Of a stretch of 64,000 nucleotides of DNA, positions 1,720 through 60,880 are shown one piece after another. The stretch lies in IMG/VR virus record IMGVR_UViG_2936028420_000001, positions 1,094 to 65,093 of that record; one strand, 5' to 3'. A program made the position numbers and the translations under genes. Each line of letters begins with the position of its first letter. Within the stretch, counting starts at the first letter, position 1. The notes beneath the pieces are model-generated. The model was not told where the DNA came from and did not search any database. It worked only from the letters and a program-made list of their open reading frames with translations. The DNA is from a virus.

Positions 1720-1988
1720 GGAAATACCCCCCAAAGTCCGGCAGCCGGTATGTGATGGCCCGGCGGCCGGAGGAAAGAATGACCGGCTCCAGGGTGATGG
1801 GCCCGGAGCCGGCTTCGCGCGAATCAGTAAGTGATGCTGACCTAAACACTCTCACTGTCAACGTGAGTATTCTATAAAAAAGTGTGAAGACTCACATTAA
1901 TTCGGGGAACACCGTACGGATACCATCCATACAATCGTCCGGCCTGTGGACAGAGAACACGGCGTTCCGTTGCGGGCATCACGTAGAA

Positions 1989-3466: not shown

Positions 3467-3714
3467 AGCGGATAATCCCTTGCGCAGTAGCGGGGCTTGC
3501 GAACCTTCGGCACAACCTCGCAGATGAGGCAGAAGCGATCGGTGCGGCGCCCGCGCTTGACGATGCGCGTGTTCTCCGGTGTGCGGGGATGGCCGGCGGA
3601 GCAGCACTCGCTGACCGGCCGATGGTTGAGACGGCCAGAATTTGGCAACAGGGTCCGGCTAGTGCCGTGCCGAGTCTGCTCGGCAATTTCCTCGAGATCC
3701 TCAAGCTCGCTCAT
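3463..3714 (-). CDS. Small Zn-binding protein resembling an HNH-associated C-terminal motif
   Basis: CSAGHPRTPENT...RFCLIC pattern. Confidence 0.5.
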   Translation of the reverse strand: MSELEDLEEIAEQTRHGTSRTLLPNSGRLNHRPVSECCSAGHPRTPENTRIVKRGRRTDRFCLICEVVPKVRKPRYCARDYPL

Positions 3715-3904
3715 GGCGCACCTTGCCTTTCTGCGACAGGAGGTCGGTGGTCATGCCCCTCAATCGCTCGTAAATCAGCTTGGCGCGGTGACGATTCCGC
3801 TCGGTCTTGAAGGCGACAGACAGGTATCTCCGAGCGTCACCGATCGGCATGGAGACGATCCTGTGGTTGATGTCGGCGATGCCGGTGCTCTTGCGCTTCG
3901 CCAT
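3701..3904 (-). CDS. Hypothetical basic protein
   Basis: MAKRKSTG... start by TGATG overlap. Confidence 0.55.
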   Translation of the reverse strand: MAKRKSTGIADINHRIVSMPIGDARRYLSVAFKTERNRHRAKLIYERLRGMTTDLLSQKGKVRHERA

Positions 3905-4068
3905 CACATCACCGCCCTGACGCGATCGATGACGGTTTGATCGTTGAGCGGAGGGATTGCCACTTGCAGGCCCCACGACTTGCCGGCCTCGAAAGCCTTG
4001 TCCCAAGCGAGGGTGGCGCCGAGCAGCAGTCCAGCTACAAAGGCGATGGTGACACACAGGATCAGCAT
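3904..4068 (-). CDS. Small membrane protein
   Basis: N-terminal hydrophobic helix; GGAGG RBS. Confidence 0.6.
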   Translation of the reverse strand: MLILCVTIAFVAGLLLGATLAWDKAFEAGKSWGLQVAIPPLNDQTVIDRVRAVM

Positions 4069-4769
4069 GCTAGTTCCTCCGGTGATGCGGTGGATGGTTC
4101 GCTCTGTGATGGGTAGTCTCCGGGCCGTTCGAGCGATCGACGGCATGGTTGAATCCAAGTGAAGCGGGTGCCTTCGGCGCCGTCATTGAGCCACACCAGC
4201 CAGCAATAGGCGGTGGCGGTCGATCCCGTCGCGGTCAGCCGGCCTTTGACCATCGGCACGCGCTCGGTGAATTGAGCGACGATCGAGGGCGGCGCGACCT
4301 TGAACAGCTTCTCGTACCGCCCGACGCTTTCGAGGAAGCTGGTGCGAACAAGCATGGCGATGCCCTTCCAGCCCGGCACGGCGAATGCCTGCTGGATGAA
4401 GCGCTCCGCCGATTTGAAGGGCGGATTGGTCACGATAAAATCCGCCGGCCACGTTGGCTCGCCGAACAAGAAATCTGTCACTTTGGCGCCGATGCCATAG
4501 TCGAAGATGTCGCTGGCGAGCACTGAGCCGAAATACTCGGCGAGCGGTCGCGACATGTCGCCCATGCCACATGCAGGATCCCAAGCGGCCATCCTGCGCA
4601 GACGCATCCGGGCGATCTCCGGCGCGAGAGCGTATTCAGGCATCAGGACGTGCTCGATCAGGGCGCGCGTTGCCCATGGAGGTGTCGGGAAGAAATCGAG
4701 GCTGTCATTCGGCTCGCTTCGATCCTCCATGACCGACCGCCCCCCGGAGGGACGGAAGGTCTCAGGCAT
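4062..4769 (-). CDS. Orphan SAM-dependent DNA N6-adenine methyltransferase
   Basis: DFFPTPPW, motif I WDPACGMG, motif IV IVTNPPF; start at 4769 or 4730. Confidence 0.85.
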   Translation of the reverse strand: MPETFRPSGGRSVMEDRSEPNDSLDFFPTPPWATRALIEHVLMPEYALAPEIARMRLRRMAAWDPACGMGDMSRPLAEYFGSVLASDIFDYGIGAKVTDFLFGEPTWPADFIVTNPPFKSAERFIQQAFAVPGWKGIAMLVRTSFLESVGRYEKLFKVAPPSIVAQFTERVPMVKGRLTATGSTATAYCWLVWLNDGAEGTRFTWIQPCRRSLERPGDYPSQSEPSTASPEELAC

Positions 4770-5139: not shown

Positions 5140-5219
5140 TGGTCGTCCTTTTTGGTGATGGTCAAAAAGTCGATGCTCGATCAGGTCCGGGTGATGGCCG
5201 GGCAAGATCGGAGGTTGCA

Positions 5220-5843
5220 TTACGCCTTTACAAAATTGGTTTCGTCTATGCCGCCTTGGGATGAAGGCGGCGCCATCGACACGTTATTCACAGGCTGGAA
5301 CTGCACAAAATCGTTGGCAGTCACTTCACCATTGGTGACAGCGAAGATCGCTTCCAGCGCGCGCTTGCGCGGCATGGCGCGACCGTAGCGCCAGCTTTCT
5401 ACTGTTCGATCAGAGACATTGATGCCAGCAGCAATCATCTGGTCGGCAAACTTCTGGTTGCTCAACGATTTCGCTTCCAGCCAATTGGAGAAGGTGGTTC
5501 GCATCGGTTTCTTCTCGCTTCCATTGACGCGCTGCGGGTAGTGCAAATCGAGATGACAGCTCCGGCACAGCCACACCACCAAACGGGGCTGGCTATAGTC
5601 AGGATGATGCATCTCAGTGCTGGTGTTTCCGCATTTACACGGTTGCGGAACGAGCGTTCCGCGCTTCCTAGATCGCTTTGAGGAAGCTCTGGTGCGCCGC
5701 CGCGCCTTCTGCTCTGGCGTTAGCGGGTGGGTTTTCCGCCATTCCCGCTGGTATGCGGCGTGGCAGGCCCGGCAAAGGCCGCCAAGCGGTAGCACGCGAT
5801 CTAGCGGCTGTTGGCATCCCGAACAAAGCTGGCTGCGCGCCAT
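5220..5843 (-). CDS. HNH/Zn-finger domain fused to Cro-like HTH regulator
   Basis: N-half CxxC...CxxCH and PCKCG...HHPDYSQP..VWLCRSCH; C-half (from Met at 5504) XRE/Cro HTH ...VSDRTVESWRYGRAMP...TNGEVTANDF. Confidence 0.75.
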   Translation of the reverse strand: MARSQLCSGCQQPLDRVLPLGGLCRACHAAYQREWRKTHPLTPEQKARRRTRASSKRSRKRGTLVPQPCKCGNTSTEMHHPDYSQPRLVVWLCRSCHLDLHYPQRVNGSEKKPMRTTFSNWLEAKSLSNQKFADQMIAAGINVSDRTVESWRYGRAMPRKRALEAIFAVTNGEVTANDFVQFQPVNNVSMAPPSSQGGIDETNFVKA

Positions 5844-5886
5844 ACGAGTTATTCTCGGTTTCACATGAATTACGCGAATCTCACGT

Positions 5887-5915
5887 GAACCTAAGCTATA
5901 TCGGTTAAGGCGTCA
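5887..5915 (-). promoter_or_regulatory. Leftward sigma70-type promoter (PR-like) with GATATAG operators
   Basis: Minus strand TTGACG-17 nt-TAGGTT; GATATAGCTT boxes just upstream of -35 and in spacer/-10. Confidence 0.7.
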
Positions 5916-5925
5916 ATAAGCTATA

Positions 5926-6105
5926 TCACTTATTTTCCGGGACCTCAGCGGTCTTCGCAGCCTCGCGTCGTTCCAACTCGTTTTCTGCGGCCTCGCGAAG
6001 GAATTGCGACCTTTTGTTCTTTCCCATGAGGGCGTCGATACGCTCGATCGTTCGCTCGGACAGCCGAACGATGATCGGTTTCACGCTCAAAGAAGGCCGC
6101 CCCAT
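5926..6105 (-). CDS. Ribbon-helix-helix (Arc/Mnt/CopG-like) repressor
   Basis: MGRPSLSVKPIIVRLSERTIERIDALMGKNKRSQFLREAAENELERRE: alternating beta strand plus RSxFLRxA helix; start 6105 (track gives 6144). Confidence 0.8.
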   Translation of the reverse strand: MGRPSLSVKPIIVRLSERTIERIDALMGKNKRSQFLREAAENELERREAAKTAEVPENK

Positions 6106-6156
6106 ACGGCGAGAACTACCCGATATAGGAAAGTTCATCAACAAGCACTCCGAATT

Positions 6157-6201
6157 AAACGATATAGCTTAGTTGACACTATAAGTGATATAGTTTATAC
6201 A
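6157..6201 (+). promoter_or_regulatory. Rightward sigma70-type promoter (PL-like) with GATATAG operators
   Basis: TTGACA-17 nt-TATACA; CGATATAGCTTAG upstream of -35 and GTGATATAGTT in spacer. Confidence 0.75.
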
Positions 6202-6325
6202 TTCAATATCAGGTCGCCATCACAGGGCTCATCACAGTCCGCATCACACGGTCTGATCGCCGCGGCGGGAGGGTGCATCACCACCCTCCACCGGGTGCCA
6301 CCATCACAACCAATGGAGCAGCCCC

Positions 6326-6670
6326 ATGACAATTGGCTCCAAATCCCCTGAGACCATCCTTCGTGAAGCCCTCGTCCACGCCCAGGACGAGCTTAAGCGC
6401 GTGAACGACCACTACGCCTGCGTTCGCCCGGACGTGCGCGGCGTCGTCGCTGAGGCTCTCGCGGCCGTCCATACGCCGAGCACGGGGAGCGATGAACTGA
6501 TCCCGGCCTTGGATCTGATCGCTGTTATGGCCGGTCAGGCGTGGCTCGACATGACCGGGCACGGCGACGTGACCGAGATGCAGCGTCGGCACACGGTCGG
6601 CCGCATGATCGGCATCAAGAACCTGCTGAACGACGTCATCCTGCCGCGGATCAAGGGGGCGCAGTCGTGA
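6326..6670 (+). CDS. Hypothetical phage protein
   Basis: GGAG RBS, high GC3. Confidence 0.75.
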   Translation: MTIGSKSPETILREALVHAQDELKRVNDHYACVRPDVRGVVAEALAAVHTPSTGSDELIPALDLIAVMAGQAWLDMTGHGDVTEMQRRHTVGRMIGIKNLLNDVILPRIKGAQS

Positions 6671-7607: not shown

Positions 7608-7693
7608 GTTCACCTTAGAGACTACCGCGCTGACGATCGCCATCACGATCATCATCGTCGGGACACTGGCTTAACCATCACAGGGACCATCAC

Positions 7694-8806
7694 ATGCCCA
7701 CCATCACACTACGCAACCAGCAGACGCTGGATAATTGGCGCAAGCGCCTCGCCGGCGAGGAGATCAAGACCTACGAAGCCGATCCAGACATTGGCTATTA
7801 CCGACTTCGCAAGAAGGACATCAAGACCAACGAGGTCTGGTGGACTCCGGTTGCCTACTTCATCGACGGCGGCAAGCTGGTCGGCGTGATCGGCGACCGC
7901 AACATGAACGAGCGTGAGATCGGCGATTTGTGGCACTCGGTTTCCGCGTATCCGATTCCGGAGGAAATCTTCTTCGCCTTCGAGGATCTAGTCGAGGTGC
8001 CGAATGCGGACTGGCCGGCCGGCCTGCGCGGCGAGCCGAAGCGCCCGCCGTTCGCGAGCAAGGCCGAACCGACCGCGACGCACACCCAGGTGGCCGGCAT
8101 CACTGGCACAGCGGTCCCCGCCGCCAACCGCGAGGTCGCCCGCTCCGACAACGCTCCGCCTGCCGAGGAGGCGATACCGCTCGACCAGCAGCACAAGACG
8201 GCAATCGACAATGCCATCGCCGCTGCGCCGAAGGCGGTACCGACCACGGCGGAGGAGGCGGCCCTGGCCGAAGGCTCCAAGAACCGGATTGCCGAGCTGC
8301 GCCTCGCTGCAGCAAGGGACGGCAAGGCGCTCTACGAGCCGATGTACCGTGCCTACACTGCGGAGCAGAAGAAGTGGTCTCCGTTGATTGCCGCTGCCGA
8401 GACTGCGGAGAAGGCGCTGGGCCGGTTGGTGCTGACCTTCCGCGAGAACGAGCGCAAGCGCGTCCTCAAGGAGCAGCAGGAGGCGGCCGCGAAGCAAGCC
8501 GCGATCGACGAAGCCAACGCGCGCGCTGCCGACCGTGCCATCGCCGCCGGCAAGCCTGAGCCCGCGCCGGTGGTTGTCGAGACGGTAGCGCCCGCAGCGC
8601 CGGAGCCGGTCAAGCCGACCTATGGCACCCGCAGCGTCAAGGCCGAGCTCAAGACCCACCTCGACGAGATCACCGACTACGATGCGGTCTACGCCTACTT
8701 CAAGGGCACGGATCCGGTGAAGGCGTTGCTGACCACGTTGGCAAAGGCGGCCATCACCGCCGGCCGCACCGTGCCCGGCACCAAGACGAGGGAGGGCCTG
8801 ATCTAA
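7694..8806 (+). CDS. Coiled-coil phage protein (possibly Gam/Gp157-like recombination accessory)
   Basis: 370 aa, long Ala/Glu/Lys helical C-half; heads recombination module; function by context only. Confidence 0.6.
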   Translation: MPTITLRNQQTLDNWRKRLAGEEIKTYEADPDIGYYRLRKKDIKTNEVWWTPVAYFIDGGKLVGVIGDRNMNEREIGDLWHSVSAYPIPEEIFFAFEDLVEVPNADWPAGLRGEPKRPPFASKAEPTATHTQVAGITGTAVPAANREVARSDNAPPAEEAIPLDQQHKTAIDNAIAAAPKAVPTTAEEAALAEGSKNRIAELRLAAARDGKALYEPMYRAYTAEQKKWSPLIAAAETAEKALGRLVLTFRENERKRVLKEQQEAAAKQAAIDEANARAADRAIAAGKPEPAPVVVETVAPAAPEPVKPTYGTRSVKAELKTHLDEITDYDAVYAYFKGTDPVKALLTTLAKAAITAGRTVPGTKTREGLI

Positions 8807-8859
8807 CTACCGACTACCCATCACCACAAAATCCATCACATCATGCAAGGGACCATCAC

Positions 8860-9507
8860 ATGCCCGGCTATATCGTTATCGACGTCGAGACCAGCGGCCT
8901 CTACATCTACAAGAACGCCGACGGCACACCACACCCGGCCGACGCCCCGGATCAACCTCGCCTCGCCGAACTGGCGATGATCTTTTGCGACGACGATTTC
9001 AACGTCGAAAGCGAATATCAGGCCTACATCAAGCCGGACGGCTGGGTCATGGACCCGGCGGCGAGCGAGGCGAATGGCATCCTGACCGACTTCCTGCACG
9101 AGCACGGAGTTCCGGTGAAGGAAGTTCTCGCTAGCTATAGCGCCGCGATCCTCGACGGTCGGATCGTTGTGGCTCAAAATGCCCAATTCGATTGCAAGTC
9201 GATGCGCGGCGAACTGCGGCGCGAGGGCTTCGACGATCTGTTCGAGCAGACGGCAAATATCTGCACCATGCGCAGCGCCATGAAGCTGGTGCCGAAGGTG
9301 AAGAAGCTCAACGGCAAGGGCGGATTCCCGGGTCTTGTCGACGTCGCCGCGCATTTCGGCATCGAGATCGGGAAGCAGCACTCGGCCCTCGATGACGCTC
9401 GCGCCGCGGTGGAGGTGGCGAAGCGCCTCAAAGAGGCCGGCGTGTTGCTGGCGCCGGACGTGCACCGCGCCAAGAACCACCCCAGCAACGAACCGGTGGA
9501 GGCGTAA
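8860..9507 (+). CDS. DEDDh 3'-5' exonuclease (DnaQ-like)
   Basis: ExoI IDVETSG, ExoII AQNAQFD, ExoIII HSALDDA. Confidence 0.85.
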   Translation: MPGYIVIDVETSGLYIYKNADGTPHPADAPDQPRLAELAMIFCDDDFNVESEYQAYIKPDGWVMDPAASEANGILTDFLHEHGVPVKEVLASYSAAILDGRIVVAQNAQFDCKSMRGELRREGFDDLFEQTANICTMRSAMKLVPKVKKLNGKGGFPGLVDVAAHFGIEIGKQHSALDDARAAVEVAKRLKEAGVLLAPDVHRAKNHPSNEPVEA

Positions 9508-10633: not shown

Positions 10634-11052
10634 TGGGCTTCGCGCTGACCATCATCCGAACCCAAAAGGATCGCGAGGAAGCGATGCTGTGGGTGACGAA
10701 GGCGCCAATCGGGACACGGATAGAGCTCCGTGGCCCGAAGCGCAGCAAGGAGCAGTCCGACAAGATGTGGGCGATGCTCACCGACATCGTGAAGGCCGGC
10801 AAGACCATCAACGATCGCAAGCTGACGACGGAGGAATGGAAGGTCGTCTTTTTGCAAGCGCTCGGCCATGAGCCGGACGTTCTGCCGACGCTCGACGGCA
10901 AGGGATTTTTCTCGCTCGGCTATTCGTCATCGAAACTATCGAAGGAGGAAATGTCGGACCTGATCGAGTACATCTACGCCTGGGGCGCCGAGAACAGCAT
11001 GGTGTGGAGCGACCCTGAACTCGCCTCGTATCAGCAGATGGCGCGCCGGTGA
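10633..11052 (+). CDS. ninB: NinB/Orf-family recombination protein
   Basis: KRSKEQSDKMWAMLTDI...WK...SSSKLSKEEMSDLIEYIYAWGAE. Confidence 0.8.
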   Translation: MGFALTIIRTQKDREEAMLWVTKAPIGTRIELRGPKRSKEQSDKMWAMLTDIVKAGKTINDRKLTTEEWKVVFLQALGHEPDVLPTLDGKGFFSLGYSSSKLSKEEMSDLIEYIYAWGAENSMVWSDPELASYQQMARR

Positions 11053-11417
11053 CCCGCAAGCACATCAGCCTTCGGACAAAGCTCGCTGCCGCGATCTGTC
11101 AGCTATTCCTGACGCACGACGAGGCGGCAGCGCTCTCGGAGGATCAGGTGTTGTTGCTGGTGCATTGGGACCACTATCCGATTCCGCACGCGGAAGGCGG
11201 TTCCGATAGTCACTTCAATCTCGTTGCTGCGCTGGTGCCGGGACACAAGGAGAAAACGGCGAAGATCGACATTCCCGGTATTGCCAAGCGTAAGCGGATC
11301 ACCAAAGCTCACAAAGATTTCCAGCGGCGCCTTTTAGCGCCGAAGGATCAGAGACCGCCCAAACCATCACGTTGGGGCAAGCGCCCGTTTCCATCACGCA
11401 AAAAGGCGAAGACATGA
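11049..11417 (+). CDS. HNH-like nuclease
   Basis: WDHYPIPHAEGG....NL......H..KT. Confidence 0.7.
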   Translation: MTRKHISLRTKLAAAICQLFLTHDEAAALSEDQVLLLVHWDHYPIPHAEGGSDSHFNLVAALVPGHKEKTAKIDIPGIAKRKRITKAHKDFQRRLLAPKDQRPPKPSRWGKRPFPSRKKAKT

Positions 11418-11719
11418 CCATCACCACCACAAATCAGAACAGCGACGACGATATTATCGCCACCACCCTGTTGAACGTCACGATCATGGCGGCCGATCGC
11501 CGTGGCGGCCGGCGCATGCTCAGCGTCGACGACTACAAGGCGTTTCAAGCAATGCTGATGGCGTCGGATGGAATCCGCCCAGCCGTTCAGCATGAGCAGG
11601 AAGTGTCGGCTGTCACTCAGTCGAAGCCGGAGCAACAAGACGCGGCGGCCATCGGAATGGATGCCGTGGCCAAGGCGATCGGAAGCACTGCCGCCACGCT
11701 TGCGCCAAACGCGCTTTAG
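11414..11719 (+). CDS. Hypothetical phage protein
   Basis: ATGA overlap start. Confidence 0.55.
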   Translation: MTITTTNQNSDDDIIATTLLNVTIMAADRRGGRRMLSVDDYKAFQAMLMASDGIRPAVQHEQEVSAVTQSKPEQQDAAAIGMDAVAKAIGSTAATLAPNAL

Positions 11720-18739: not shown

Positions 18740-19777
18740 TCAAACCCCCTGGTCGCGGAGCTTCGTCCAGCGCTGCCAGCCGGTGTAGGCCAGCGCGGCA
18801 AGCGCAATGACGGACGCCGCGATTGCGATTGCGGCCCACAGGTTCGGCGGGACGCCCAGGAACGGCTTGACGGTGTGAACGATCGCGGTGGCGCTGTCGG
18901 CCGCGACCTGCACGGTGGTGATGGTGTCGGAGGCCTGCGCCACCTTGTCGGCGACGTCTGAGATGCTGACGGTGTGGGTCTCAGTGTTGCCGTTCTCCGC
19001 CATCTTCGATGCCGCGCCGATCACGGTGGGCACCGCGGTCGAGATGACGCCCTTCATGATCTTGGAGTTGCCGAGGGTCTTGTTGTTGGTGTCGGCGCCG
19101 CGCGGCGCCTCGACGGGCGCCTCGATATCCGGCATGGCGTCCGACCAGCGAGCCACCCACACGGAAACCTCGTGCATGCCGTTGGTGCCGCCGTTGACCA
19201 GCCGGCGCACGCGCTCCGTCATGCCCTTCTTGGCGGGACCGACGCAGCCCAGCGCCACAAATTCAGCGACCGCCACCTCGAAGCTGATCTTGGGATCAGC
19301 GAGCAGTGCCGGATTGTCGGCGAGCTCGGGATGGCCGGTCATCTCGCCGATGCGCTCGTAATTGTCGCGCCCGGTCAGCTGCAGATCGCCGCCGCCACGG
19401 TATTTGTACCCGTCGCCCGGCAGATGATTGCCGAGTTCCTTGGCAAGCTTCGGCGAGCTTGGCAGGTTGTAGACGCGCTCGAACAGCGCCACCTCGTTAT
19501 GGGCGAGCCCGGCCGCCTCCTGCGGTGTGACCTTGGCCGACGACTTGCCCGCGCCGAACACCTCGACGATGCGCTCGGCGCGATAGTTACCACTCTCGCG
19601 GACGATGGTGCCGGCGCCGTTCTCATGGCTGATGTTGGCCATAAGTTGCACGACCACCTTGGGATCGTCGATGTCGTGCTCAGCGAACACTTCCTCCGAG
19701 ATCGCGCAGATGGTGTCGATCTTCGCCTGCGGCGCTCGCGGCCACATATGGCGAAGGGTCTCCGCTTCGAGTTTCAT
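18740..19777 (-). CDS. GH19 (chitinase-like) endolysin with C-terminal TM segment
   Basis: NISHE..G...RE..NY, DGYKYRGGGDLQLTGRDNY, RRLVNGGTNG. Confidence 0.85.
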   Translation of the reverse strand: MKLEAETLRHMWPRAPQAKIDTICAISEEVFAEHDIDDPKVVVQLMANISHENGAGTIVRESGNYRAERIVEVFGAGKSSAKVTPQEAAGLAHNEVALFERVYNLPSSPKLAKELGNHLPGDGYKYRGGGDLQLTGRDNYERIGEMTGHPELADNPALLADPKISFEVAVAEFVALGCVGPAKKGMTERVRRLVNGGTNGMHEVSVWVARWSDAMPDIEAPVEAPRGADTNNKTLGNSKIMKGVISTAVPTVIGAASKMAENGNTETHTVSISDVADKVAQASDTITTVQVAADSATAIVHTVKPFLGVPPNLWAAIAIAASVIALAALAYTGWQRWTKLRDQGV

Positions 19778-19789
19778 GGTGATGGCTTT

Positions 19790-22700
19790 CTAGTGTGATG
19801 GTTGTAGGCGCTGCACTTCCGCGCGAGCGTGGTTCTGCACCTCGCGAATTTTGTCTCTTAGCTCCGTCTCACTCAGGCTCTTGTTCTGGCGCAGGCCCTT
19901 GATCCGCTCATCGGCGCTCTTGAAGATCGATGCCTTGGTGGTCGGTGCCTCGCTCAGGAACTGCCGAGCCTCATCGGTATTGGTGCCGCCCTTCAGGTCT
20001 TTGCGCGCGGAGTTGATGCCTGCCTTGTCGTCGAGCGCCTCTTGCCGCTGTTCGTAATAGAGCGCGCGGTCGGCCTCCGGACCCACCTTGCCGACGAAGC
20101 GGCGCAGGATCGGCGTCTTTTCTGGCTGCCACTCGCCGCCGGTCGCGGTGTTGTAGAGCGTGTCCGCGATGCCCTTGGCGAAGCGGCCGACGCCGCCGGT
20201 GACGGCCTGCAACACATGGTCGATGCTGGCCGGATGTACGTCGATCGCGCCCGGCTGGTAGCTGCTGCCGCCGCTCCATGCGTTGAGGTCTTTCGCGGCT
20301 TCCTTCGAGAACGCGGAATTGCTCTTGAAAGCCTGCGAGGAGTCGGGCCGCACGCCTCGGTTCTTGTCCTGCTCCGGATAGAGCGGCTTGCCGGTCCAGT
20401 CCCGGTTGAACTCGATGTGGAAGGCCGGCCGGAGCGCGGAGGGAATGATATCCATCCACGTCGAGCTCTCCTCGCCCAGCGGGTTGAAGGCGCTCAGGAT
20501 CGAATCCATGATCGCGCTGGCAGCCTTGCCGGGCTTCTCCTTGCCCATCGCGACCGAGACGGCATGCGAGCCGATCACGGCAAACGGCGAGAAGCCGTAG
20601 GGCAGGGGCACCTTCAGATAGCGGTGCCCGCCCATCATGAACACGAGGTTCTTGTCGCGGTCCCAACTCGGGATCTTCATATAGTCGGAGACGCCGGCCT
20701 CGTCCGTGTCGCTGGCGAGGATCGAGTACAGCGTCGAGAGGGCGGCAGCTGCCGCGAGCGCGCCGACGGCCTGCCACACCCGGCGGTGACCGAGCGCGGT
20801 GGTCATGCGGGCGATGCCCTGGACGCCAGCATTGGCGAACATATAGAGCGCGGAGATGGCACTGCCGAGCTCGCCCTTCTTGTTGAAGTCGACCGTCAGG
20901 TTGCGCGCGAGCATCGCGGCGTCGGCCGTCGGGATTCCAGCTTCCTCCGCGGCCATGAAGGCGGCGAGGCGGGTTGCGTTCTCGATTCCGCCGCCGGCCA
21001 CCTCCAGCGCCTTGCCGGCCTTGTCGCCGATATCCTTGAGGGTGTTGACCGGGCCGCCCTCGAGCCGCTTGAGCTTCCGGCCCACGTTGGTCTCGATGGC
21101 GTCCGGATCCTCGATGCCGAAGAAGCGCACCCGGCCGCCCGCCTTGTCGAACCGGTGGAAGGCGTCGACATAGGGATCACCCGGCGCGGCGCCGGCGATG
21201 GCCTTCATTGATCCCTTCATCGCGCCCGGGATGTGCTTGATGAAGTTGCGGACGAAGCCGCGCTGCTGCTGCGCCTGCAGGTTGATGAACGCCTCGCCCA
21301 TGTCGCGGGCGAAGTTCGGAATCATGAACTCCGGATTGAACGAGGTGGCGAGCTTTGCCATCGTGTGAGTGATCGCGGAATAGGCCCGGATCAGCGCGTG
21401 GACGTTGGCGGTGCCCATGTTCTTGAGGCCGCGCGCCAGATTGAGCCCGTCGGGCCCGTGCAGCGCGATCGTGATGGTGCGGCCGTCAACCTTGGTCGAG
21501 AACTCGTTGTCCTTCAGCGCCGGCATGTTGTCGGGGATGGTGGTCACGAGCCCGGTATTCGGGTCGATCCGCTTAATGGGCTGCCGGCGGTTGATGGTCC
21601 AGCGGGCCGGATCAGGGTTGGCGCGGACAAATTGCAGGAAGGTGTTGCCCACACGGTTCTTTTCGGCCCTGACGATCGCCATCTCGGCTTGCATGATCGA
21701 GTAGGCGAGGGGAGAGGCGGCATCTGACTTGCGGCCGAAGGCGTTCTTGGCCTCCTTGCCGCGCACGTTCATGCCGCTGCCCTGGCGCGACATGGAGGCC
21801 TCGTCCTCGCTGCCGTCGGCCCAGCCGCGGAGCGGGACGTAATACTTGTAGCCGTTGTTCCAGGCATCGAAGGTGTCACGATCGATCAGACCGGCATCGA
21901 ACAGGGTGCGGCGGGTCTTGGCGTTGAGCGCGTCGATCATGCGGGCGACGGCGAGATAGTCCGGCAGTTTGCCAGCGTTCCGCAGGTCGCGGATGACCTG
22001 TAGTGCCTCGTTGGTCGACCAGCCGGAGCCGCCGACCTTATCGTGGTCCCTGATGGCATCGTAGAAGTCGTGGCCGGGCGTGTACATGGTGCCGATCGCG
22101 TTGTTGCGCTCGGGCGCGTGGCGGGCCTTGAGGAAGTTGTCGAGCTTCTCCACGTCGATGTCGCGCGCCTTCATCTCTCGGATGAGGGGATCGATGTGGT
22201 TCTCGGTCAGGGATTCCAGCCGCTGGCCGGTGCGGCCGTAGTACAGGCTCTCGGCCTGATACGCTGACTGGCTCGATGGCGCTCCAACCGACTCCTCGGC
22301 CTTCTTGACCCGCAGGAACTTGTCCTGCAGCTGCACGCGGATCTCGGTAGCGTTGATGTGACCCAGGCGACCGAGCAGCCGCGTGCGCAGGATGTCGGCG
22401 ATGGTGTTGTCGAAGGAGTTGGGGCCGCCCGGCTGGAAGGCGTTCGGTGGAGCGTTTAGCCCCAATCCCCCTTCTTCTTCTCGCGGATGGTCCGCTCGGC
22501 CAGCTTGATCGCCGCGTCGCGTCCCGCCGTCGGTTGCAGGGAACGCATTTCGGTCAAAAACTGCTCCCACGTCTCCAGGGTGTCGAACGGCCCGGGCGGG
22601 TCGATCATGTACTCGGCTGGCTTCATGGTTGGTCAGGCCCTTCTTGATGAGATCGGCGGCCTCGCTGATCGCTGTATCTATGCCGGGAACGCGCGATCGG

Positions 22701-28700: not shown

Positions 28701-31700
28701 GGATAGCGATGCTGTCCGCGGATTCCGTCATCGATCGCGTCGAGAAATTCCGCGACCGTGCTGGTGCCTTCGGCGGAGCCTCGGAAATAGCCTGCTTCCT
28801 CGGCCGCCTCGCGCGCGCGGTCGAGATCCATGCCGCCATCTTTGACCAGCTTGCGGCGGGGCGGGAACCCCTGCATCGCGACGGAATGCTTGTGGGCATC
28901 CATCACCGCGAGTTCCGGATGCGGCTTCAGGCCGCCCTTGCTGGCGATGAATTGGAGCAGGTTTTGGGGCTCTTTCGCGCCCGTTTTTGCCGTTTTGTCC
29001 CGGCCGCGCCCTTGTTGCGGTGCAGCAGGTTCCGAACCTATGTTATTGACTACGGCCGGAGTCGCCTGTTTGGTACCGGCTAGGGCAGCATCTTTAGGAA
29101 GCGAAGGGTTACCCCCCAGCGCATCTTGGCCGCCCTGTAAGGCCTTGTCCGGAGTGTGATGGCTCTCGGATTTGGTTAAGGCGGGCTCCGGAGTGTGATG
29201 GCTCTCGGGGCCCGCCGCACCAATCTCTTTGACCGGTTTCGTTGTGTCGGTTTGCAACCAAGCCTGAAACTTCTCAGGCGTCATTGCAACAACGTGACCA
29301 ATGCGACTTTCGCCGTGGTCACTGTACGAATCCGCATAGGCCCGCATCGCTGCATCGGGCCCTGGGAATCCGATCATAATCTTGTGTTCATCCCACGCGC
29401 CCGTTTTCGGGTCGTGCTGATCGATGACGAAGATATCGCCGCCGGGCCCAAGATGTACGTCGAGCGGCTGACCGTCGCCGCCGACTGTGCCCTTAATCCG
29501 ACCGTAAGGGTACTTGAGCGTGACCTCCCACGGATTACCGTCTGGATCGACGCCTTTACGAACTTGCCCGGCGCCGGTCTCGACCGAGATCGAGTGCTTG
29601 CCGACAAGCCCGAGAGCGGGGATTTCAAGGTGAGTGTGCCGGTAGTTTTCAGCTTCCGCCTGGGCCTGCGATTTAGGCTCGTCAGGCCGCGCCTTCATCG
29701 CGGCATCGATATGCTCGACGGACTCAACTCGGATTGGTTTGTCGCGAGTGCCGGCGCCTAACTCGGGAGAAACTTCCCGTCCGGCCCGTGTTGCATCGGC
29801 GGCGGCTGATTTCTCGTCGGAGAGAGAAGCTTGTTCGGAGACGTCATTCCTCGACGCAACCGCTGCCTGATCGCCCCCTTCGACAGCCCCATTCTGATTG
29901 CCGCTTGCGATGCGTTTTCCGTCACCCCATTCACTGTTACCATCACGACGTTCCTGCGGTTCTCCGCCTGCTGGGCTCTTGTCGCCCACTGCATGTTCCC
30001 CGGAACGTAACCCTTGTCGTTCTCGATCCGATCCAGCGACAGATCGGGGCTCGGACGTCGACCCACCGCCATCAAGAACGTCGGGAAGTCGTTTTCCCAC
30101 TCCAGAGCCATCTTGATCCCCCTCGCTCCGTAGTTCTTGTACGCGTGATCCGTCGGGTTGTTGCACCTCCCCTTGATGTTCTTCCAGATCTTGTATTCCG
30201 GCAGCCTGCTCATCCCGTGCTTGGTTGGGTACGTCATTCTTCTCTCCCGGCGATGGTCGCGACCTGCCAGTTTTCATGGCGGCCTGATACGCCTTGCTCC
30301 GCTGTTCCGGAGTCATAGCCTTGACCCAAGATGGGTCCCAGCCCTTCGCAATCAAGGCATCGCGCTCTGCTCGATCAGTCGCAACAGCCTCGCGAGCGGC
30401 TTTTTCGTCTGCGGTTTCCGGCTTCGCCGTATACCCCGTGGACGAAGTATCCCTCATCTGTTCATTCACAGCATTGAACAGATCGGCGTCCGACATCTTG
30501 CTGACGTCGACGCTCGGATCGAACATCCGGTGCAGCTTCTCCATCTTCGCGCGCATCCGCGCGTCCATGGTGTAGTCCGCACCCATGCCCTCGCCGGTGC
30601 CGGGGGGCGGCTTGCCGGGCTCGGGGCCCTGTCCGGATCGCTGGTTGGATTGTTGGTTGCCCGCACCGCCTGGCCCAGGCTGAGGGCCGCCGCCGGGATT
30701 GGGGCCAGCGCCAGCCGCTCCAGCCTGATCGTCCCAGCCACGGCGCTGCCAGTCGCGGGCTTCCTGCTCGGCGCGCGCGCGGGCCGCATCCGGTCCCGGG
30801 CCGCCCATGTCGGGTCCGCCGCCAGGGAGCGCGCCGCCCGGCGCCGGGGAGGCGCCGCTAGTGTCGCTGGAGGTGTCCTGCCGGGTCTCCGGGCCCCTGC
30901 GCTCGAACGCATGATGCAGGCCGCCCATGCCGGCGCCGAGGATCAATTCCGCGATGATGCGCTTCTGATCGAGTGTGTAGCCAGCCTTCGGATCGTAGTC
31001 CTTGGCGATCTCTTGGAGGATGGCTTCCTGCGCCTCGCCGAGCGTCGTGAATGCGGCAGCGGAGACCGCGACCTTCGCGATCAGGCCCTGCGCATATTTG
31101 CCGGCACCGAGCGGCAGGCTGCCGAGCACGCCGGCGACCAGGGCGGACTTCGCCGCCGTCGCATTGGCCTCGTCGTCGGTCTTGCCTGCGGCCTTCGATG
31201 CCTCGAAGACGCTGCCGTAGGTGTCGAGCGCCATGCCGCTGGCGGCGGCGGTAAGACCGACCAGCGGGCCTGCGGCGAGCGTCGCTGCACCATAAGCGGC
31301 GATCGAGCCCGCGCCGGTACCGATCCGGCCGCCGATTGAATCCTTCTCCTGCGGCGTCATCGGCGCGACGGTTTGCGCAAAATCCTGTGTTGCCTGTCCT
31401 GCCTTGTAGAGCGTGCGATCCTGCAGCGGCTTCGCCGGTACCGCGGCGGCCGGCGCATTGACCATGCCGGTGGCATTGCCCATGGCGTCGTACTGCGGCG
31501 TCTCAGGCTGCTCGGGGATGCCGTTGTCGTACAGCGCGGCCGCGCCCTTGAGCGTGCCGCCAGCAGTCGAGATCGCGCCGTGCGGGATGCCCTTGGCGGC
31601 CGCGACCGCCTGCCGGCTGATCGTGAGCGGCGGGACTTCCGGACCTTCCGGCGTGACGGGCGTGCCGAACTTGGAGAGGTCATCCGTCGACGGCTCGGGC

Positions 31701-42486: not shown

Positions 42487-42534
42487 GATGATCGTCCTTC
42501 TGTGTGATGGGGTGATGGTGAAAGGTGGTGGGGA

Positions 42535-53997: not shown

Positions 53998-54512
53998 CTG
54001 TCGAAGCTGGTCGCGGAGGTTACCGTGGTCACAGGAGGTTCGCCGGCCTTGTTGCCGGGCGGAAGGTCACCACCCTGCGTCTTCGATTCCGGCGGCTCGG
54101 CCGGCGGCGGCAGGATCGGGTGCTCGGCAACGCCGGTTTGGTTCTGCTCCGCTTCCCCACCGGTACCGGACTGATCCGTAACCGCTTCCGCTTCTTGTTC
54201 CTTTGCGACGGCGGCTGCGATCTCAGCGTGCGTGCTGACTGCCTCGTAGCCGGATGGCGGATAGTTCACGGCCTTGTAGCCAGCGTCCATCCACTCCTCG
54301 ATCGTTGGGCCCTTCCGCTGCGGAATCTCCGCCGACGGGTCGATGCCGTGCTCGATCTGGTGGATGACGTTCTTGCCTTCCTCGCTGGCGACGGCCCATA
54401 GGCGGCGGCCGTCGGAGATGAGCTCGACGACGAAGTGGTGGGCATAGCGAACGCCGCGCTCGAGCGGCGGGCCCATGATCTCGGGATGCGTCAGAATTGC
54501 CGGGATGTGCAT
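53994..54512 (-). CDS. Hypothetical protein
   Basis: GAAGGA-CCATCAC-ATG start; RKGPTIEEW motif. Confidence 0.7.
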   Translation of the reverse strand: MHIPAILTHPEIMGPPLERGVRYAHHFVVELISDGRRLWAVASEEGKNVIHQIEHGIDPSAEIPQRKGPTIEEWMDAGYKAVNYPPSGYEAVSTHAEIAAAVAKEQEAEAVTDQSGTGGEAEQNQTGVAEHPILPPPAEPPESKTQGGDLPPGNKAGEPPVTTVTSATSFDS

Positions 54513-54584
54513 GTGATGGTCCTTCGTGATGGTGGCCGGCTTGCTTCATCGCTTCGAGGATGGCCTGGGGCCTCGTCGCTGTCG

Positions 54585-55813: not shown

Positions 55814-56421
55814 GGACGCACCTTGCGGGTCCGGCGCACGTTCACGGTGACGTCGAACGCCTTGGCGACGGCAGAGAGCACCAGGGCGATGTTCTGTCGG
55901 TACTGCGCTGGCGGTTCGACGTCGGAGCAGCACAGATCGTCGAGGACGTTCTTGGCCTGCGAGCCGTAAGGGCTGATCGCCTTCATCAGCTTCTCGTAGT
56001 CCTTTCGGGCTTTACGGGCTTTGGTCTCGTACTCCTTGATTCCGTCCGTCTCGTTGGCGAGGCGTTCGAGTGTCTGATCCGATCCGAAGGCGCGCTCGAA
56101 CGACGGCGAGCGTGCGGTGCGGCGCCCCTCGACATGGAATTTCTCGAAGCGGGCCATGACGTAGGCGACACGGCGAGCGGCTTCCGCCTGCAACGGCGTC
56201 AGGTGATTGTGCACCATCAGCCGGCCGATCGAGCTTACGAGCTCACGACTGATCTTGTAGGCGTTGCGCGCCTCCTCATCGAGCGACTTGTAGCGGTGCC
56301 AGATCACGGTTTCACCCCCGCGCTTCTTCTGAGCGCGAGGGTATCGCTTCACGGCTGAGACAGACTTGATCGCTTCGTTCACTGTGATGGCCCCATGGTG
56401 ATGGTGGGAGATGTTGAGCAT
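55810..56421 (-). CDS. Putative late-gene regulator (Q/DUF6456-like)
   Basis: IGRL...LTPLQAEAARR pattern; between replication and packaging genes. Confidence 0.45.
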   Translation of the reverse strand: MLNISHHHHGAITVNEAIKSVSAVKRYPRAQKKRGGETVIWHRYKSLDEEARNAYKISRELVSSIGRLMVHNHLTPLQAEAARRVAYVMARFEKFHVEGRRTARSPSFERAFGSDQTLERLANETDGIKEYETKARKARKDYEKLMKAISPYGSQAKNVLDDLCCSDVEPPAQYRQNIALVLSAVAKAFDVTVNVRRTRKVRP

Positions 56422-56454
56422 TGTGATGGTCTGCCCTTCGTGGTGATGGTTGGT

Positions 56455-58765: not shown

Positions 58766-58794
58766 GATGGCCTCGGTGATGGACGAGATGTGGT

Positions 58795-59283
58795 TTAGCT
58801 TCGCGCAAACTCTCCGAAGGCCTCCTTGGCTGCCGCCTGATACGCGGCGCTGGCACCCTCAATGGTTTCGAAATGACCTAGTGACTTCCGCTTACCGTCA
58901 GTCCGGATGCGAGCCTCAAATGGCCGACTGAGAGATTTATTGCTGCGTCGGACGCCCTTCACGCCTGTCAGGCTATCGATCCGGGCCTTTTTGTTTCCCT
59001 CGTTTTGGGTTTTGGTTGCGGCGCGGAGGTTGACCCATTTATTGTTTGTTCTATCGAGATCACGATGGTCAACTTCGCCATCGGGCCACTCGCCTGTCAT
59101 GTAAAAGACGGCGAGCCGATTCAGTCGATAGTGGATGCCGGCGATCTTGACCCGTAGGTAGCCATCGCTATCCGGGCCGCCAGCCGCACGATCGACGACG
59201 CGGCCACGGAGAAAAATCCATCGCCATTCGCCAGTTTCAGCGTCGTAAGAGAGAACCGTCTTTAGCCGCTCTAAGGTCAGCAT
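58795..59283 (-). CDS. HNH-AP2 homing endonuclease
   Basis: VDHRDLDRTNNKWVNLR; TGVKGV...SLGHF. Confidence 0.9.
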   Translation of the reverse strand: MLTLERLKTVLSYDAETGEWRWIFLRGRVVDRAAGGPDSDGYLRVKIAGIHYRLNRLAVFYMTGEWPDGEVDHRDLDRTNNKWVNLRAATKTQNEGNKKARIDSLTGVKGVRRSNKSLSRPFEARIRTDGKRKSLGHFETIEGASAAYQAAAKEAFGEFARS

Positions 59284-59347
59284 TTTGCTACATCCCGTGA
59301 TGGAAGGATGGGACCGGCGGCTGATGAGGCCGCCGGGTAGAGTAGGA

Positions 59348-60160
59348 TCAGACGTTGCCGGGCGAACCCAGCATGACGGGCACCTTGGTGTGCTCGGCGA
59401 TCTCGTCGGCGATGCGCGTCAGTTCGGCCTCGATCACGCTCTCGATCTTGGAGAGCTTGAAACCGACCATCAGCTTGCCGTCGTCGATCTCGTCGCGGGC
59501 ATAGGCGGTGACCACCACGGGATTCTCGCCGAGATAGACCGGGATCGCGAGGGTCCAGACCGGCGGGAGCTCGGTGCCGTCGATGTCCAGGCTGCTACCG
59601 CTGATGCCGCGGTCGGAGCCGGCGGACAGCATCTTGCGGCCGACCCGCATGTTGACGCCCTTCTCCATGTCGAGAACCATTTCGAGCAGGGTGGCGCCGG
59701 GCGGCGAGGTGATGTCGAGTTTGTGCTCCTCGAGGAAGCGGGCGAACTTCTTCTGCTCCATCATCACGCCGTCCACGCCGGTCCACGTCCGCCACTCCTT
59801 GGAGTGCGCCAGCTGCAGGACCGCGTGATGCTTGCGCAGGCCGGCGGCAGCGCTGCCGGCGGTGTGATAGTCGACGCAGGCCACGATCTTGGCGGTGTCG
59901 AGGTTGGCGAAGATCACGGTCGAGTCGTTCTTGAAGCGGTTCACGTAGTCGATCAGGCTCTGCGTGGTGGCGACCAGGGGGCCGCCGGAGACGAAGCCCG
60001 GCTTCGGCGTGATCTCGGAATCAGGCGTCAGCTGCTTGGCGGTGTAGGAGCCGCCGGTACCGGGGATCATGAGCCATTCGATGCCGCGCTCGTCCTTGAC
60101 GAGGGTGGGCACGTGGTTGATGGCGGCGGCGATTGAAACGACGTCGGTAGCTTCGGACAT
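59348..60160 (-). CDS. DUF2303 (YfdQ-like) protein
   Basis: SLIDYVNRFK...DYH...W..W...QKKFARFLEEH pattern. Confidence 0.75.
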   Translation of the reverse strand: MSEATDVVSIAAAINHVPTLVKDERGIEWLMIPGTGGSYTAKQLTPDSEITPKPGFVSGGPLVATTQSLIDYVNRFKNDSTVIFANLDTAKIVACVDYHTAGSAAAGLRKHHAVLQLAHSKEWRTWTGVDGVMMEQKKFARFLEEHKLDITSPPGATLLEMVLDMEKGVNMRVGRKMLSAGSDRGISGSSLDIDGTELPPVWTLAIPVYLGENPVVVTAYARDEIDDGKLMVGFKLSKIESVIEAELTRIADEIAEHTKVPVMLGSPGNV

Positions 60161-60228
60161 TGGTTTTCCCTGTGATGGTTGCAGATGTGATGGGTAGGGC
60201 GAGCGGGGCGATGGTCCCGCTCGGATCG

Positions 60229-60429
60229 TCAGGTTATCGCGATGTGGACAGGCTTACCGAGCAATGATCCAGACACGCGACAGAAGTCATCACCGACGTT
60301 GAGATTGAGGGTAGCCGGCATGCCACCGGCGACCCCGGAGACGGTCAGCGTTTCGTCGCTTGACTCGGTGATGTCGACAGAGAAATCCACGCCAAGGAAC
60401 GTCCCGCTCACTGTTTTGGCTTTACGCAC
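60229..60429 (-). CDS. Small beta-rich protein
   Basis: 66 aa, inserted between YfdP/Q-like genes. Confidence 0.45.
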   Translation of the reverse strand: MRKAKTVSGTFLGVDFSVDITESSDETLTVSGVAGGMPATLNLNVGDDFCRVSGSLLGKPVHIAIT

Positions 60430-60817
60430 GGCGGGAGTCCCCGTCGATCACGGTCACGTTGCCACGGCCGACGCGGTTGAGATCGCCTTCCTGCTGGCGC
60501 GCCACGGCGGTACCGCGATCGTTGCCCTCGTGGATCAAGCTCATCTGACGCGGATCGGTCCGGATCAGCTTGTTGTCCTCGGTGGCGTAGTAGATCGCCG
60601 TCTTGATGTCCTCGGCCGGCAGCGAGATGCCGATCTTGGCGGAGATTTCGAGCTCGCCATCGCCATCCTTGAGCGGCTTGATGCCGATCTTGAGAGTGAC
60701 GGCGCCGCCCTTGCCGGTGGCACGGACAGCTTCAACGACTTTGGCGAGAGCGGTAGATGCAGCGCGATCGGCAGCGCCGCCCCTCATACTGGCAACGGCT
60801 TCAGCAAATTCGGCCAT
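60422..60817 (-). CDS. YfdP-like partner of DUF2303
   Basis: AVRATGKGGAVTLKIGIKP...DPRQ. Confidence 0.7.
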   Translation of the reverse strand: MAEFAEAVASMRGGAADRAASTALAKVVEAVRATGKGGAVTLKIGIKPLKDGDGELEISAKIGISLPAEDIKTAIYYATEDNKLIRTDPRQMSLIHEGNDRGTAVARQQEGDLNRVGRGNVTVIDGDSRRA

Positions 60818-60880
60818 TTGGTGATGGTCCTTCCGGTGTGGTGGTGTGATGGTGTGATGGTGGGGAAGTGGTTCAGTATC

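Follow-up and report, generated by a model that had tools for sequence, protein, structure and literature searches.

A G-free heptamer repeated before gene starts in a temperate phage: a candidate cis element of translation initiation

Introduction

The leader of the early rightward operon of this phage carries the hexamer CATCAC five times in ~110 nt, where ~0.1 copies would be expected at the genome-wide rate. What purpose could such a cluster serve? The original prediction placed the copies at 6218, 6230, 6242, 6276 and 6302 and took the leader for a nut-like antitermination element or a sponge RNA that displays the motif in hairpin loops to a trans-acting binder. All five copies are present, and all lie on the + strand. 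They are one cluster of a motif that is repeated phage-wide before the starts of ~17 genes, and the question is therefore one about the whole genome.

The window, meaning the whole stretch of DNA analysed, is 64 kb out of a 67,243-bp virus record with a GC content of 62%. The first three letters of the record are the stop codon of a 478-aa gene, its end falls inside another gene (edges G000:C1:1-3 and 66188-67243), and it has no terminal repeat. GC content goes down to 54% in its last 1.2 kb. An identical copy of one phage protein is on record on a 686-kb contig. Because of these edges and this identical protein, the record is probably a provirus that was excised from a larger bacterial contig by gene-boundary rules. 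The phage is temperate. It encodes an integrase, a replication initiator, several HNH endonucleases, an SU10-type portal, a capsid protein and a polyvalent protein of 4,050 aa, and its early rightward operon encodes an exonuclease, an Erf-type annealing protein and NinB. Gene calls were made with our own heuristic and are rough, such that some obvious starts were missed.

Three paralogous free-standing HNH genes, all on the minus strand, are sited between phage genes (50219-50710, 53202-53672 and 58795-59283). They are 61-80% identical over stretches of 37-51 nt and are extra to the HNH modules at 5220-5864 and 11049-11417. Only one of the three has a motif copy upstream of its start.

Results

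The leader motif recurs genome-wide in the mRNA sense

CATCAC occurs 101 times in the 64-kb window, compared with 38 expected. The heptamer CCATCAC occurs 57 times in the 67-kb record, and 52 of these copies are in the mRNA sense and 5 antisense. Within non-coding DNA, which makes up 13% of the genome, the count is 24 sense and 0 antisense. The mRNA-sense copies are on the plus strand in the rightward operon and on the minus strand elsewhere. The extended consensus is CCATCAC(A/C), which is without G. An unbiased count of all k-mers in the segments that precede called genes also put CCATCAC first among 7-mers (18 copies, spread over 11 of 37 segments; 0.58 expected).

The copies lie close to gene starts. 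For 22 of the 57, a called start on the same strand follows within 45 nt (1.4 expected), and the distances peak at 0-3 nt and 10-28 nt; this total rises once the starts missed by the rough gene caller are added. Copies are single or in arrays of 2 to 5, at spacings of 8-42 nt with a visible mode at 12-16 nt, and a periodicity of ~12 nt was not significant (P = 0.18). The genome is compact, and any intergenic motif in it lies close to some start codon. Therefore, position alone fits DNA-level sites as well. The features of the rightward leader and of the other loci are collected in Table 1.

Table 1. The rightward leader and other motif-bearing loci (positions in the window)
Feature	Position	Strand	Details
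Putative early rightward promoter	6173-6178 and 6196-6201	+	TTGACA, 17-nt spacer, TATACA; read from the sequence
5' leader of the rightward operon	6208-6325	+	~115 nt; five motif copies
Leader copy 1	6217-6224	+	CCATCACA
Leader copy 2	6229-6236	+	TCATCACA
Leader copy 3	6241-6248	+	GCATCACA
Leader copy 4	6275-6282	+	GCATCACC
Leader copy 5	6301-6308	+	CCATCACA
Weak hairpin, 3+3 bp	6235-6255	+	CAGUCCG-CAUCACA-CGGUCUG; CAUCACA (copy 3) in the 7-nt loop; predicted in the minimum-free-energy fold
Perfect 8-bp hairpin	6268-6289	+	GGAGGGUG / CACCCUCC, CAUCAC hexaloop; part of the predicted minimum-free-energy fold of the leader
SD and start of the first operon gene	6315-6328	+	GGAG 6315-6318; ATG 6326
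Second cluster, four copies	7640-7708	+	One in hairpin 7635-7650, one abutting ATG 7694 (GGGAC-CATCAC-ATG), one in codons 3-5 of the 370-aa gene
Third cluster, three copies, before the exonuclease gene	8818-8862	+	ATG 8860; has 17-mer GGGACCATCACATGCCC
Three copies around ATG 11414	11364-11425	+	Two within the 3' end of the upstream gene
Leader of a leftward gene	1737-1813	-	ATG 1719; two strong hairpins with CCAUCAC loops: 1782-1813, 12 bp; 1737-1771, 11 bp plus one mismatch
Two copies in the 3' end of the methyltransferase gene	4082-4112	-	Directly before SD GGAGGA and ATG 4068 of a 54-codon gene
Two copies before ATG 5139	5148-5197	-	Proximal copy in 7-bp hairpin CUUUUUG-ACCAUCAC-CAAAAAG (5148-5169), immediately 5' of SD AAGGA
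Two copies before ATG 19777	19779-19801	-	CCATCAC-c-ATG; distal copy in the last codons of the giant gene
Two copies 5' of the major capsid gene	42504-42518	-	8 nt apart, just 5' of the SD; ATG 42486
Two copies before ATG 54512	54513-54532	-	AGGAC-CATCAC-ATG
Four copies around ATG 56421	56384-56449	-	Alternative GTG 56382
Single copies before ATG 58765 and ATG 59283	58776-59303	-	
Two copies before ATG 60160	60172-60193	-	
Three copies before ATG 60817	60821-60860	-	Order motif-motif-SD-motif-ATG

The rightward leader has five copies, one of them in a perfect hairpin

From the position of the putative promoter, the rightward transcript is inferred to start at ~6207-6210. This promoter was left unlisted by a scan that required T at position 6 of the -10 element, since its -10 reads TATACA. 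The minimum-free-energy fold of the leader has a predicted energy of -50.1 kcal/mol (z = -2.6). The perfect hairpin of the original prediction was found as described, with stem GGAGGGTG (6268-6275), CATCAC (6276-6281) as the loop and CACCCTCC (6282-6289) as the return strand. No T-run or downstream terminator was found after it. A competing stem, GGGCU/AGUCC, could form around copy 2 in place of the weaker hairpin at copy 3. Both further loop displays of the original prediction also exist, at 7635-7650 and on the minus strand at 5148-5169, the latter with a 7-bp stem. The first operon gene (6326-6670) encodes 114 aa and belongs to no known family, and a search for its relatives returned none.

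Next to the leader lies a small ribbon-helix-helix (RHH) gene on the minus strand (5926-6144, 72 aa). Five operator copies of the AGCTATATC type, at 5890-5932 and 6120-6194, flank the RHH gene around face-to-face promoter-like sequences. Two of the five read CTATATCAC and have ATCAC in common with the motif.

Motif copies are in register with the Shine-Dalgarno sequence and the start codon

The ~17 genes preceded by the motif include early and late genes, and their copies lie 0-30 nt before the ATG. All of these genes follow an intergenic gap or a short overlap, whereas genes coupled to their neighbor by a stop/start overlap are without the motif. The start codon was ATG in 16 of the 16 motif-linked genes checked. 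At short gaps, the preceding gene retains copies in its 3' end (4082/4106, 11364/11391 and 19795).

Two placements are seen relative to the Shine-Dalgarno (SD) sequence. The motif lies either just 5' of the SD or within the spacer from the SD to the ATG, as in GGAC-CATCAC-ATG. The spacer placement is found as AGGGAC-CATCAC-ATG at 7694 and 8860, as AGGAC-CATCAC-ATG at 54512, as GGAC-CATCAC-caa-ATG at 60817, and as CATCAC-N-ATG or CATCAC-N-GTG at 19777, 56421, 56382 and 61613. Placement 0-6 nt 5' of the SD is found before the capsid gene (CATCAC-acagaAGGA) and at 4068 (CATCAC-cGGAGGA), 5139 (CATCAC-caaaAAGGA) and 6326 (CATCAC-aaccaatGGAG). Of 11 clean intergenic gaps, 5 have a last copy that stops 0-1 nt short of the ATG, compared with ~0.8 by our own estimate for a copy placed anywhere in the gap.

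Two neighboring early genes start with an identical 17-mer, GGGACCATCACATGCCC, at 7682-7698 and 8848-8864, which combines an SD-like GGGA, the motif, the ATG and a Pro codon. A third gene (ATG 54512, minus strand) begins with AGGACCATCACATGCAC.

Near-start copies are predicted to be exposed

Exposure was predicted by partition-function folding of 160-nt mRNA segments. The mean unpaired probability was 0.80 for motif nucleotides and 0.43 for other UTR or leader nucleotides. Near-start copies had a mean of 0.78, compared with 0.60 for composition-matched hexamers (P = 4e-6) and 0.62 for coding copies of the same hexamer (P = 0.015). The predicted edge over coding copies is thus modest.

Loop display was not a general property of the motif. 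Flanking stems of at least 5 bp were predicted for 13 of 43 near-start copies, and 20% of matched hexamers genome-wide have them likewise, so that the frequency is not above background. Strong loop-displaying hairpins were confined to long leaders (6268-6289, 5148-5169, 1782-1813 and 1737-1771), among which the segment 1705-1860 has a predicted fold of -71.1 kcal/mol (z = -4.1). The idea of an RNA motif exposed for a trans-acting binder is consistent with copies that are on the mRNA strand only and predicted to be accessible, and with strong loops in a few long leaders.

Relatives keep the layout and vary the sequence

No close cultured phage was found. Uncultured relatives were retrieved via capsid proteins that are 60-86% identical. 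Their capsid leaders are otherwise diverged (45 distinct leaders), and CATCAC is present in 9 of the 45 versus 0.7 expected and CATCA in 18 versus 2.5 expected. These copies nearly always lie immediately 5' of the SD, at -21 to -34, which is also their place in the phage under study. Two other capsid leaders, L168:9400-9476 and L170:9930-10000, have G-free tandem repeats of a different sequence upstream of the SD, in units of CCCCA(C/T)T in L168 and of CACTCACTACTCAC in L170.

The proliferation of CCATCAC was absent in five complete relatives (G001 to G005). In G001, the orthologue of gene 18740-19777 keeps CATCAC-c-ATG. In G003, the orthologues of genes 59348-60160 and 60422-60817 have three or four copies of CCATCC/CCATCA in the same motif-SD-motif-ATG layout, with three CCATCC and one CCATCA before the former. 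Upstream segments of G003 hold CCATCC 8 times in sense and 0 times antisense (1.5 expected), and those of G004 hold TCCCAC 5 times in sense and once antisense (0.6 expected); both counts are from few copies and rough gene calls. Should these counts be borne out, they would point to an element that predates the phage under study and whose sequence shifts in concert within each genome. Concerted change of a motif within a genome is the expected product of a specific, co-evolving reader.

CCATCC precedes several starts at ~30,820-31,400 in G003 (L200-L203), also in the form CCATCC-ATG, and the G-free TCCCAC precedes several starts in G004 (L204-L207), also in the form TCCCAC-ATG. The 370-aa protein whose early codons carry a motif copy has relatives that are 60-70% identical (P0002-P0012). 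In its relatives from public contig sets, which are 37-46% identical, the motif was absent.

Searches for a reader and for other sources of the motif

A domain search of 48 small phage proteins found no known RNA-binding domain, and presence or absence in relatives gave no convincing candidate for a reader. There was no match to an Rfam family or tRNA in the phage, and none on the leader hairpin. The 3' UTR at 1888-1995 was not structured. Every occurrence of the anti-motif GUGAUGG in non-coding DNA was the complement of a motif copy, and there was no separate locus for it. With respect to rRNA pairing, GUGAUGG was found once, in a variable region of Mycobacterium 16S rRNA, and not in Flavobacteriales 16S rRNA, and neither taxon is known as a host of the phage.

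A tandem anti-motif at 3901-3912, GGUGAUGUGAUGG, was considered as the source of an antisense sRNA and rejected, as the site is the stop/start overlap of two genes. On the minus strand, it reads GGTGATGTGATGG, the tandem motif in reverse complement, and joins a 54-codon gene (3904-4068) and a 65-codon gene (~3706-3903). Simple longest-ORF rules missed both genes.

Outside the phage, three tandem copies of CCATCAC in the viral contig set turned out to be coding repeats (AITGKTITG tail-fibre repeats and His runs). The composite CCATCAC-N(2-12)-GGACCATCACATG had 14 matches in the genome and viral contig sets, compared with ~12 by chance. A chromosomal gene start in a Hyphomicrobiaceae metagenome-assembled genome (MAG; JANOAW010000549.1, L215:1318-1347) reads CCATCAC-N13-GGACCATCAC-ATG and so matches the composite of the phage. 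Host-wide use in that MAG was rejected: it has a single GGACCATCACATG site, its other CCATCACATG sites are mostly within open frames, and the match is probably due to chance.

Discussion

We propose that CCAUCAC(A/C) is a start-associated cis element of mRNA that is read single-stranded by a sequence-specific factor acting on translation initiation, a reading to which we give about an even chance. Such a factor would act in trans, bind the exposed copies and set the initiation rate of cistrons that are not translationally coupled. It would probably be phage-encoded, because related phages carry different motif variants at orthologous leaders. Alternatively, the factor may be encoded by the host, or the hosts of the phages may differ. 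With its five copies, the leader that opens the early rightward operon would be the target bound with the highest avidity. We lean toward activation or ribosome recruitment as the effect, because the major capsid gene has the motif and relatives keep it there. Upstream sites plus one that overlaps the ribosome-binding site would equally suit a repressor of the CsrA or RegA type. A bolder version, which we hold as doubtful, is that related temperate phages each have a private translation-start tag (CCAUCAC here, CCAUCC in G003 and UCCCAC in G004). A factor encoded by the phage and evolving along with the tag would read it and steer or gate ribosomes on the phage's cistrons.

The same sites could instead be oriented DNA sites, at which a phage protein bound to double-stranded CCATCAC blocks or modulates transcription elongation, as the L5 repressor does at stoperators. 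The RHH repressor (5926-6144) or the HNH/Cro-like protein (5220-5864) would be the candidate. The motif is asymmetric, points the same way relative to transcription in both arms, and is found genome-wide in short gaps between genes. These features are described as hallmarks of stoperators (PMC9283540), which PMC3203893 contrasts with start-associated sequences. Five copies are directly downstream of the early promoter, the RHH gene adjoins the leader, and the core ATCAC is also that of the 7-bp omega heptads, 5'-WATCACW-3', of pSM19035 (PMC9499535). However, the operators that flank the RHH gene are of the AGCTATATC type and not CCATCAC, and a 7-mer offers little specificity to a DNA binder. 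Stoperators are single 13-bp sites that are the same as the promoter operator, whereas here there are arrays and the operators, at ~5890-5932 and 6159-6194, differ from the motif. Omega requires contiguous 7-bp repeats, two to four or more heptads in either orientation, at promoters (PMC9499535), whereas the copies here are 8-42 nt apart at gene starts and the non-coding ones have one orientation. Nor would a roadblock lead one to expect the ATG register, the SD-flanking layout or the predicted RNA accessibility. Irregular spacing with no significant period is more in keeping with a target read as a single strand than with an array phased along the DNA. Taken together, the strand restriction, the SD/ATG register, the predicted exposure and the irregular spacing lead us to favor an RNA-level element that would be read single-stranded, and we consider an oriented DNA site unlikely.

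An RNA-level element need not have a specific reader. The G-free, C/A-rich leaders might serve as enhancers or standby sites that keep the ribosome-binding site open and bind 30S or S1 non-specifically, and local duplication plus drift might have spread the heptamer. Enhancers that lie upstream of the SD have precedents in the leaders of T7 gene 10 and TMV omega. Motif-bearing gaps such as 8807-8859, 42487-42534 and 60818-60880 are C-rich and G-poor (C 0.40-0.46, G 0.08-0.10), and the L168 and L170 capsid leaders carry other G-free repeats. Against this, composition alone would not call for one exact 7-mer at more than 15 separate loci, some of them within coding 3' ends, several gaps are not G-poor after the motif copies are removed, and the concerted, genome-specific variants point to a specific reader. 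We regard a factor-independent enhancer as quite improbable.

Control of termination has the least claim on our confidence and is, we think, very improbable. On this reading, which is the idea of the original prediction in its widest sense, arrays in operon leaders and between cistrons would load Rho as rut sites do, or work like nut sites, and so bring about polarity or lift it. Such a role would be in keeping with copies that are pyrimidine-C-rich, exposed, often 12-16 nt apart and in untranslated gaps, and with the hairpin-displayed copies in the promoter-proximal leaders of two operons. Rho is not known to need a fixed heptamer, and the ~12-nt period is the one found above not to be significant. 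A lambda nut site is a defined unit of boxA plus a boxB hairpin. Each early operon has one or two such units, placed upstream of terminators, and they do not abut start codons. The rightward leader resembles a nut site in having a hairpin in a promoter-proximal early leader. However, its loop and stem sequences are unrelated, there is no boxA, and the phage has dozens of copies rather than two, many of them abutting starts. No boxA/boxB-like unit, adjacent terminator, or N- or Q-like gene was recognised in the phage. The nut-like element of the original prediction is thus disfavored by the occurrence of one heptamer before ~17 early and late genes, often next to the ATG, with no T-run or terminator and no Rfam match. 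The sponge fares no better. A sponge RNA such as CsrB concentrates many binding sites in one dedicated non-coding RNA, whereas most sites here are at the ribosome-binding sites of coding genes, and the five-copy leader directly precedes a gene with an SD and ATG.

The role of the start-associated element can be approached with simple means, as a relative has a different variant in the same layout at orthologous genes. The motif is also of value for annotation, since it marks true start codons and real small genes. The private-tag version, if true, would add a phage-specific layer of control over translation initiation and would explain the purpose of start-associated sequences.

Among RNA-level regulators, CsrA/RsmA and T4 RegA offer the nearest layout. 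Both use several short single-stranded or loop-displayed sites per leader, the last of which overlaps the ribosome-binding site or start, and both act on many target mRNAs. The arrangement of the putative sites here is alike, but the sequence is unrelated, since CsrA sites have GGA and RegA sites are A/U-rich. The search of the phage proteins detected no homologue of CsrA or RegA.

The closest counterparts at gene starts are the start-associated sequences (SAS/ESAS) of Cluster K mycobacteriophages. These are asymmetric 13-mers that occur 11-19 times per genome in one orientation, 3-7 bp from mostly ATG starts (PMC3203893, Pope et al. 2011). Most precede non-structural genes, and an inverted repeat lies upstream of some (PMC3203893, PMC12699233). 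No function was known for them when they were described in 2011, and a 2025 survey still terms their role unverified (PMC12699233). Like SAS, the phage motif is a short asymmetric repeat in many copies, private to its phage group, of near-uniform orientation, close to mostly ATG starts and mainly at non-structural genes. It has the copy number, sense orientation and start proximity that define the start-associated kind, and its sequence is not the Cluster K consensus. The SAS 13-mer, GGGATAGGAGCCC, contains the SD core and occurs once per gene, whereas the motif here is a G-free 7- to 8-mer that flanks a separate SD, often in arrays of 2 to 5. Unlike SAS, it also precedes the capsid gene, and the phage is GC-rich with canonical SD sites. 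It is an unusually clean and dense example of a start-associated sequence: seven bases, free of G, arrayed and separable from the SD, in a GC-rich phage whose SD sites are ordinary.
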